From Escherichia coli (GTDB lineage: Bacteria; Pseudomonadota; Gammaproteobacteria; Enterobacterales; Enterobacteriaceae): 64,000 nucleotides of DNA. This document shows positions 42,008 through 44,620 of this stretch, piece after piece; position 1 is the first letter of the stretch; every line of letters begins with the position of its first letter. The translations under genes and the position numbers were made by a program. The notes under the pieces were generated by a model, which was given only the letters and a program-made list of their open reading frames with translations, searched no databases and was not told where the DNA came from. The DNA lies in the NCBI RefSeq assembly GCF_044324875.1, contig NZ_CP172185.1. The stretch is one strand, 5' to 3'.

Positions 42008-43468
<1,461 letters not shown>

Positions 43469-43485
43469 TTACAGGAAATAGTACC

Positions 43486-43797
43486 ATGCAGCCAAACGAC
43501 ATCACTTTTTTTCAACGTTTCCAGGATGACATTCTGGCTGGGCGTAAAACCATCACCATCCGCGACGAGTCTGAATCGCACTTCAAAACGGGTGATGTGC
43601 TTCGTGTCGGGCGTTTTGAAGATGACGGTTATTTTTGCACGATTGAAGTCACCGCAACCTCAACCGTAACGCTGGATACACTGACGGAAAAACATGCAGA
43701 GCAGGAAAATATGACCTTGACTGAACTGAAAAAGGTCATTGCCGACATCTATCCCGGTCAGACACAGTTTTATGTGATTGAATTTAAATGTCTTTAA
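43486..43797 (+). CDS. yqfB: ASCH-domain protein YqfB
   Basis: 103 aa starting [30 protein letters not shown]. Confidence 0.9.
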
Positions 43798-43957
43798 ATT
43801 GAACTCACACCTGTTAGTTGAAATTTTGCATTTAATTTCATGATTTTTCGGAGATTAGTCCCAAATCAGAATTTATTTTAGCTAACAGGTGTTCACTGGA
43901 ACTATTCTCAGTTACGCTGGAGAGGTTTACACGTGCGTGTACGTTTCTCCGGAGTAA

Positions 43958-44620
<663 letters not shown>

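Follow-up and report, generated by a model that had tools for sequence, protein, structure and literature searches.

The inverted repeat between yqfB and trhA in Escherichia coli is best explained as two FabR-type operator boxes in mirror orientation within the trhA regulatory region, the left of which is a putative auxiliary FabR site. We give this reading, which is derived from sequence comparison, a probability of about 0.6. The right box is the already known FabR operator of the trhA promoter and is backed by a published mutation. The addition made here is a modest one, and consists of a conserved second box and a conserved element in the middle of the spacer, both with the status of candidates. 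For the left arm of the repeat, a role as an auxiliary site of protein binding is more likely than one as half of an RNA stem.

The window (the whole stretch of DNA that was analyzed, 64 kb in length) is from E. coli. Matches to its 1,135-bp yqfB-yqfA stretch are present in 5,425 of 5,426 complete E. coli genomes, with 99.7% identity to an O158:H23 strain and 96.9% identity to K-12. The open reading frame list and the RefSeq annotation of matching E. coli genomes place the coding sequence of yqfB, which encodes N4-acetylcytidine amidohydrolase, at 43486-43797 on the plus strand. The downstream gene yqfA, which current annotation names trhA, occupies 43961-44620 on the same strand and encodes a FabR-regulated membrane protein of the PAQR family (PMC9017321). 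The gap between the two genes is 163 bp and holds the inverted repeat. A terminator scan of 43400-44100 found no intrinsic terminator of yqfB, that is, no G+C-rich short-loop hairpin with a U-run.

A repeat finder reports arms at 43807-43824 (ACACCTGTTAGTTGAAAT) and 43875-43892 (ATTTTAGCTAACAGGTGT), which are 18 nt each, are complementary at 16 of 18 positions and are 50 nt apart. Both mismatches of this stem are G:T and would become G:U wobbles if the plus strand were read as RNA. The arms contain a perfect core of 11 bp, with ACACCTGTTAG at 43807-43817, CTAACAGGTGT at 43882-43892 and 64 nt between them. This intervening stretch is 75% A+T, compared to 48.5% for the window. The preliminary description of this DNA had reported an inverted repeat around an AT-rich stretch in the yqfB-yqfA gap, and the sequence and the repeat finder bear out the repeat, its placement between the genes and the composition of the stretch. 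Its coordinates for the right arm (43882-43892) are also accurate. Its left arm, 'cacacctgttag', actually sits at 43806-43817, having been placed one base too high, and the first c of that string has no partner and does not belong to the repeat.

The core 11-mer occurs twice in the 64-kb window, as the two arms of this repeat. The repeat alone is not compelling, because the window holds five perfect inverted repeats of at least 11 nt with loops of 3-100 nt, and dinucleotide shuffles yield 1.46 +/- 1.0. It is judged to be non-random because it is conserved in other genera. A lack of conservation in related genomes, which had been named beforehand as the observation that would count against the repeat, is not what the comparison finds.

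The right box ('O1', AGCTAACAGGTGTTCACT) spans 43880-43897, with its core ACAggTGT at 43885-43892, and is overlapped by the right repeat arm. With core ACAGGTGT, it is an 18-bp pseudo-palindrome that resembles the boxes of fabA and fabB. FabR is a TetR-family repressor whose action is promoted by oleate, and trhA belongs to its regulon beside fabA and fabB (PMC9017321). When the 'FabR binding box' of the trhA promoter was mutated, expression rose and the response to both FabR and oleate was abolished (PMC9017321). The mutagenic primer from that study matches 43867-43902, and its sole difference from the window is a change of ACA to GTG at 43885-43887, within the right arm. The published core motif of FabR is ACAnnTGTnnnnT. 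In Salmonella, chromatin immunoprecipitation found FabR on the yqfA promoter and yqfA is derepressed in a fabR mutant (PMC4804515); derepression of yqfA is also seen in a Klebsiella fabR mutant (PMC11481535). Published results on FabR control of trhA in E. coli itself conflict (PMC4804515, PMC9017321).

The same site emerges when trhA is left out of the motif. A symmetrised weight matrix was built from just two K-12 boxes, those of fabA (AGCGTACACGTGTTAGCT) and fabB (GGCGTACAAGTGTACGCT), with trhA excluded, and the right box scores 16.1 bits, which ranks it first among the 63,983 positions in the window. Together with the adjoining promoter block, it varies hardly at all among 80 Enterobacterales species. 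The block itself, ttTATTTtAGCtaACAnGTGTTCACTGgAAntATTCTCAGTTA at 43872-43914 on the plus strand, contains the trhA core promoter and has a column conservation of 0.93-0.96. Among the FabR (YijC) operators of fabA, fabB and yqfA/trhA, the right arm is thus the yqfA/trhA member, an 18-bp pseudo-palindrome (AGCnnACAnnTGTnnGCT) that overlaps the promoter.

Within the promoter block, TATTCT at 43903-43908 is the candidate -10 element of trhA, which would put the start site at about 43909-43916. A consensus promoter scan around trhA gave no match and, since it also missed the real trhA promoter, carries no information on promoter positions. The conserved TTGAAA and TGATT sequences were considered by eye as parts of a second promoter for sigma-70, sigma-32, sigma-54 or sigma-28 on either strand and were rejected for unacceptable spacing or -10 sequence. 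A short inverted repeat, ACTGG...TCAGT at 43895-43913, lies within the invariant block and overlaps the candidate -10. It is kept in 33 of 33 aligned species, and RNAalifold detects the same pairing; it could be an additional protein site or could merely reflect promoter constraint. The presumed 5' UTR of trhA is predicted to form an imperfect hairpin at 43912-43957 on the plus strand (a repeat pair whose fold is -18.1 kcal/mol, z = -2.9), and its 3' arm reaches the Shine-Dalgarno sequence GGAG at 43951-43954. K-12 and E. albertii have a similar fold, which is strong only in Escherichia; in other genera the sequences differ and mostly give weak hairpins (z of about -2 to +1). If formed, this hairpin could influence the translation or the stability of trhA mRNA in Escherichia.

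The left box ('O2', AACTCACACCTGTTAGTT) is the candidate second operator. It spans 43802-43819, with its core ACAccTGT at 43807-43814, starts 4 nt after the yqfB stop codon and overlaps the left repeat arm (43807-43824). In the window (core ACACCTGT) it scores 10.3 bits with the fabA and fabB matrix and ranks eighth among the 63,983 positions. The preliminary description had recommended a motif search, and this matrix places the right arm first and the left arm eighth. Its alternative suggestion of a pair of regulator half-sites upstream of yqfA is right as to regulator sites and wrong as to half-sites, since each arm lies within an 18-bp FabR-type box of its own.

Like the known FabR operators of fabA, fabB and trhA, the left arm has the ACAnnTGT core, and it shares the TGTTAGCT half-site that is seen in fabA. 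Unlike them, the left box is about 78 bp upstream of the promoter box, outside the usual -35 region, and has a degenerate outer half-site. At this position beyond the -35 region it would not directly occlude polymerase. The box combines a good inner half-site (TGTTAGCT) and an ACA..TGT core with a poorly conserved outer half, in which the outer AGC/GCT triplet of FabR operators is not conserved. One good half-site with the core of the other is what would be expected of a weak site that depends on cooperation.

Conservation of the left box was surveyed in 80 species-representative genomes of Enterobacterales that were scanned for TrhA. A second ACRnnTGT core is found 30-130 bp upstream of the main box in 45 of the 80 loci, and the chance expectation is 0.04 per locus, or about three in total. 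The spacings fall into two classes that differ by roughly one turn of the helix: 37 loci have 75-78 bp and six have 64-66 bp. The left box of the window is 78 bp upstream of the right box. Carriers include Escherichia, Citrobacter, Salmonella, Klebsiella, Raoultella, Enterobacter, Kluyvera, Phytobacter, Pluralibacter and relatives. The 64-66 bp class (L035, L037, L050, L051, L055 and L056) comprises Kosakonia-like, Pseudescherichia and related genomes. In the same survey the second core is missing from Pantoea, Erwinia, Pectobacterium, Buttiauxella and Cedecea.

The consensus of the left box across its carriers is ACRnnTGTTAGyTGAAA at a fixed distance of 75-78 bp from the operator (37 species). 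An alignment of 33 sequences resolves the region into three conserved islands, AC...TGTtAG.TGAAa, tAA.....TGA.Ttt and the promoter block, and the remaining A+T-rich spacer is about 50% identical. Within the left core, AC and TGT are invariant, and variation is free at the central nn and at the base that follows TGT, which matches the pattern of the FabR motif ACAnnTGT. The third position of the core is G in 13 of the 33 species and A in the others; main boxes almost never have G there. When the left-box consensus is compared with the main-box consensus, 17 of 18 positions are identical in reverse complement and 11 of 18 in direct orientation. The inverted-repeat relation therefore holds clade-wide, beyond this strain.

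The strength of the left box varies widely among its carriers. In Kluyvera and Citrobacter gillenii it scores 16-17.6 bits, equal to validated boxes. Escherichia left boxes are the weakest within the clade. Positions 43807-43809 are ACA in the window and ACG in K-12 (L001) and four other sampled E. coli (L084-L087), and the K-12 box scores 6.8 bits. E. albertii has lost the TGT of the left core as well. The exact 41-mer of the left arm from the window occurs in at most 140 of 5,425 E. coli genomes (at most 2.6%), and the perfect 11-bp form of the repeat is a minority allele within E. coli. ACA and ACG at 43807-43809 constitute a natural allele pair that may differ in repression of trhA.

The genes upstream of trhA also differ among species. 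In seven genomes of the 75-78 bp class (L004, L013, L021, L023, L026, L030 and L034) yqfB is missing upstream of trhA. In these loci the ACAnnTGT core keeps its spacing and the outer part of the stem is gone. All of the seven except L030, as well as L035, L050 and L056 of the 64-66 bp class, have a divergent rpiR-family gene upstream, and a Pfam check of L021 and L050 finds the domains HTH_6 and SIS in this neighbor. In the six genomes of the longer-spacing class, the divergent gene is about 260 bp from trhA, and the control region that the two genes share contains the left box. From this arrangement, the left box might also regulate the rpiR-family gene.

No second FabR-type core is present within about 240 bp of fabA. 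For fabB the one candidate is an FabR-like 18-mer (GGGAAACAGGTGTACCCT, 12.2 bits) that occurs 157 bp upstream of the K-12 fabB box (about 9217-9234 in L083), inside the divergent gene mnmC and within its first ~60 nt. A second box or an IHF-like site at trhA is mentioned in none of the papers that the literature search covered. The search on FabR ChIP-exo returned nothing specific.

A third conserved element lies between the two boxes. It is found at 43833-43845 (TAATTTCATGATT on the plus strand and AATCATGAAATTA on the minus strand) and, read on the minus strand, has one mismatch to the IHF consensus WATCARNNNNTTR. When 39 sequences are compared to WATCARNNNNTTR in this fixed register, 11 match perfectly, 25 have one mismatch and three have two. 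At most one mismatch is thus found in 36 of 39 sequences, compared to 2% of shuffled spacers. The element lies on the conserved island tAA.....TGA.Ttt of the 33-species alignment. It is present in nearly all loci with 75-78 bp spacing and in no locus with 64-66 bp spacing, and it is near the midpoint (43849.5) of the box centers at 43810.5 and 43888.5. As in IHF sites, it fits the consensus WATCARNNNNTTR and has an A-run 5' of the element on the consensus strand. In E. coli it departs from that consensus with a T at the sixth position, and the likeness is one of consensus match only.

Literature co-occurrences of IHF and yqfA are irrelevant, apart from indirect data from Salmonella. There, yqfA clusters with SPI-2 co-regulated genes that are down in himD (IHF), phoPQ, slyA, ompR and ssrAB mutants (PMC2639726, Table 2). 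This co-clustering suggests that trhA has regulatory inputs beyond FabR. The fall of yqfA in the himD mutant is indirect, and is opposite in direction to what would be expected if IHF aided repression.

These elements can be assembled into a scheme for the control of trhA. FabR binds the right box and shuts off trhA together with fabA and fabB. The left box would be a weaker, auxiliary FabR site, held by selection 75-78 bp upstream. A second FabR dimer on this box could cooperate with the dimer at the promoter and thereby tighten repression. Alternatively, the left box could serve as a roadblock to polymerases that read through from yqfB, a gene without a recognizable terminator. More speculatively, the IHF-like element could be where a protein induces a sharp bend that joins the boxes into a small repression loop.

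Published reporters limit what the left box can do. The upstream primer of the K-12 constructs (PMC9017321) maps to 43705-43728, and these constructs accordingly held the whole intergenic region. Because mutation of the right box alone abolished FabR control in them, the left box is insufficient for repression and is at most auxiliary. Other observations also run against the auxiliary-site reading. A spacing of ~77 bp is a non-integral number of helical turns, and most E. coli carry the ACG form of the left core. In addition, the third core position is A or G only, and G:U cells outnumber A:C cells by 69 to 6 across species (counts that come mainly from three columns and from related sequences), which is the bias that an RNA stem on the plus strand predicts.

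The version of this scheme in which a FabR dimer represses trhA through a loop of ~77 bp, with weak distal and promoter operators joined by an IHF-induced U-turn, is a tentative proposal that we consider doubtful. Repression loops with auxiliary operators are well known from gal OE/OI with HU, from lac O1/O3 and from NagC operators with a CAP-induced bend. The trhA region shares several features with these systems: its main operator is at the promoter, a weaker candidate operator lies at a fixed distance from it, a putative site for an architectural protein is near the midpoint, the distal site is insufficient alone, and the spacing classes differ by about one helical turn. However, the gal, lac and NagC repressors tetramerise or bridge, whereas FabR is a TetR-family dimer without reported looping. 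A 77-bp spacing is also unusually short, and the trhA layout is one known from sequence. To our knowledge, neither FabR nor any other TetR-family dimer has been demonstrated to loop or bridge DNA. We also know of no description of a dual-operator mechanism assisted by an architectural protein for FabR or related fatty-acid regulators.

Of the competing explanations, the one that survives best is that the left box and the mid-spacer element are the site of a different protein, such as IHF with an upstream activator, or a nucleoid-associated or envelope-stress regulator. The likeness of the left box to FabR sites would then derive from an old inverted duplication. The best-conserved part on the left, TGTTAGyTGAAA, outruns the FabR 18-mer, in which the outer half-site is poorly kept, and a separate conserved IHF-like element adjoins the box. 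The Salmonella co-clustering with IHF-, PhoPQ-, SlyA-, OmpR- and SsrAB-dependent genes (PMC2639726) and the loss of all FabR control in K-12 upon mutation of the right box alone (PMC9017321) would also suit a second regulator. We nevertheless regard this explanation as unlikely. The invariant positions on the left are exactly those of the FabR core ACA..TGT, the dinucleotide at its center is free, and in several genera the box scores like validated FabR boxes with a matrix that excludes trhA. Compared by eye to the consensus sequences of Cra, PhoP, CpxR, SlyA and OmpR, the left element shows no convincing fit.

The arms might instead pair in RNA that reads through from yqfB, and form a long hairpin at 43807-43892 that acts as a 3'-end stabilizer, an RNase III site or a barrier to transcription. 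We consider this distinctly unlikely, even though folding of the single sequence gives a strong result. The plus strand folds with -30.8 kcal/mol (z = -4.6), no shuffle is as good, and the minus strand is weaker at -24.4. Read-through RNA is plausible for a gene that has no intrinsic terminator after it, both mismatches of the 18-nt stem are G:U on the plus strand, and the excess of G:U over A:C cells and the A/G-only third core position noted above point in the same direction. In silico, pairing of the arms is predicted for 32 of 32 species (median z = -3.6), as is expected for any two conserved inverted boxes. The repeat resembles known intergenic RNA hairpins (intrinsic terminators, RNase III sites and 3'-UTR stabilizers) in that a stable hairpin is predicted directly behind a stop codon and the variation on the sense strand tolerates G:U pairs.

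Comparison across species mostly goes against such a stem. Pairing is found in 86.4% of cells, compared to 85.8% in column shuffles (94 of 500 of which reach the observed value), so that there is no covariation beyond the separate conservation of each arm. The covariation score is 0.096 versus 0.091 in shuffles, and the RNAalifold consensus is -4.3 kcal/mol with a covariation term of -0.09. The center of the stem is unpaired in 12-14 of the 33 species, and 75 cells are transversion mismatches. Constrained and free positions follow the FabR motif ACAnnTGT rather than a uniform stem. The RNA folding that the preliminary description had proposed as a check on its long-stem structure thus delivers a strong single-sequence fold and, across species, covariation at the level of shuffles.

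Location and gene context weigh against an RNA stem as well. Where the upstream neighbor is a divergent rpiR-like gene, the outer stem has disappeared while the ACAnnTGT core stays at its unchanged spacing. No upstream-gene transcript would cross the left box in these loci, because they have no co-directional upstream gene; the persistence of the box there speaks against the long-stem structure. The right arm lies in a box that is proposed to overlap the trhA core promoter and, being upstream of the inferred start site (about 43909-43916), would be absent from trhA mRNA. No U-tract follows the stem, where the sequence is TCACTGG, and the loop is 50 nt. A search of 43300-44300 against Rfam at permissive thresholds gave chance-level matches only, far below gathering scores. 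The repeat thus differs from known intergenic hairpins in its lack of a U-tract, its 50-nt loop, its lack of covariation and of an Rfam family, and a 3' arm that is a proven DNA operator.

That the repeat arose by chance, or is a relic in decay with no function in present E. coli, is very unlikely. In favor of this idea, 64 kb would be expected to hold about 1.5 perfect inverted repeats of 11 nt of this type and the window holds five, the perfect form is rare within E. coli, E. albertii has lost part of the left core, and the K-12 box reaches only 6.8 bits. Against this, at least six genera retain the left core and its spacing in surroundings where the spacer has diverged to ~50% identity, and a second core is present in 45 of 80 loci where about three would be expected. 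Finally, although terminal inverted repeats enclose an A+T-rich core of 64 bp, the idea that they delimit a short mobile or repetitive element, for example a miniature transposable element or a REP-like unit, has a negligible chance of being right and is rejected because the sequence is single-copy: the left-arm 41-mer occurs at a maximum of one place per genome in the 5,425 E. coli genomes, the 11-mer is found nowhere else in the window, and the position of the repeat relative to trhA is constant across genera.

Of the genes in the FabR regulon, trhA (yqfA) is the one that is least understood. If the left box is inert, what has been found is a known operator with a conserved neighbor that has no assigned role. 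If both the second box and the IHF-like element are genuine, the trhA control region would be a three-part module rather than a single operator. Such a module could explain differences in the tightness of trhA repression between strains and species, for which the weaker ACG form of K-12, the ACA form of the strain in the window and the full-strength box of Kluyvera provide a range of alleles. The trhA region would then offer a simple example of a TetR-family lipid regulator that may act cooperatively.
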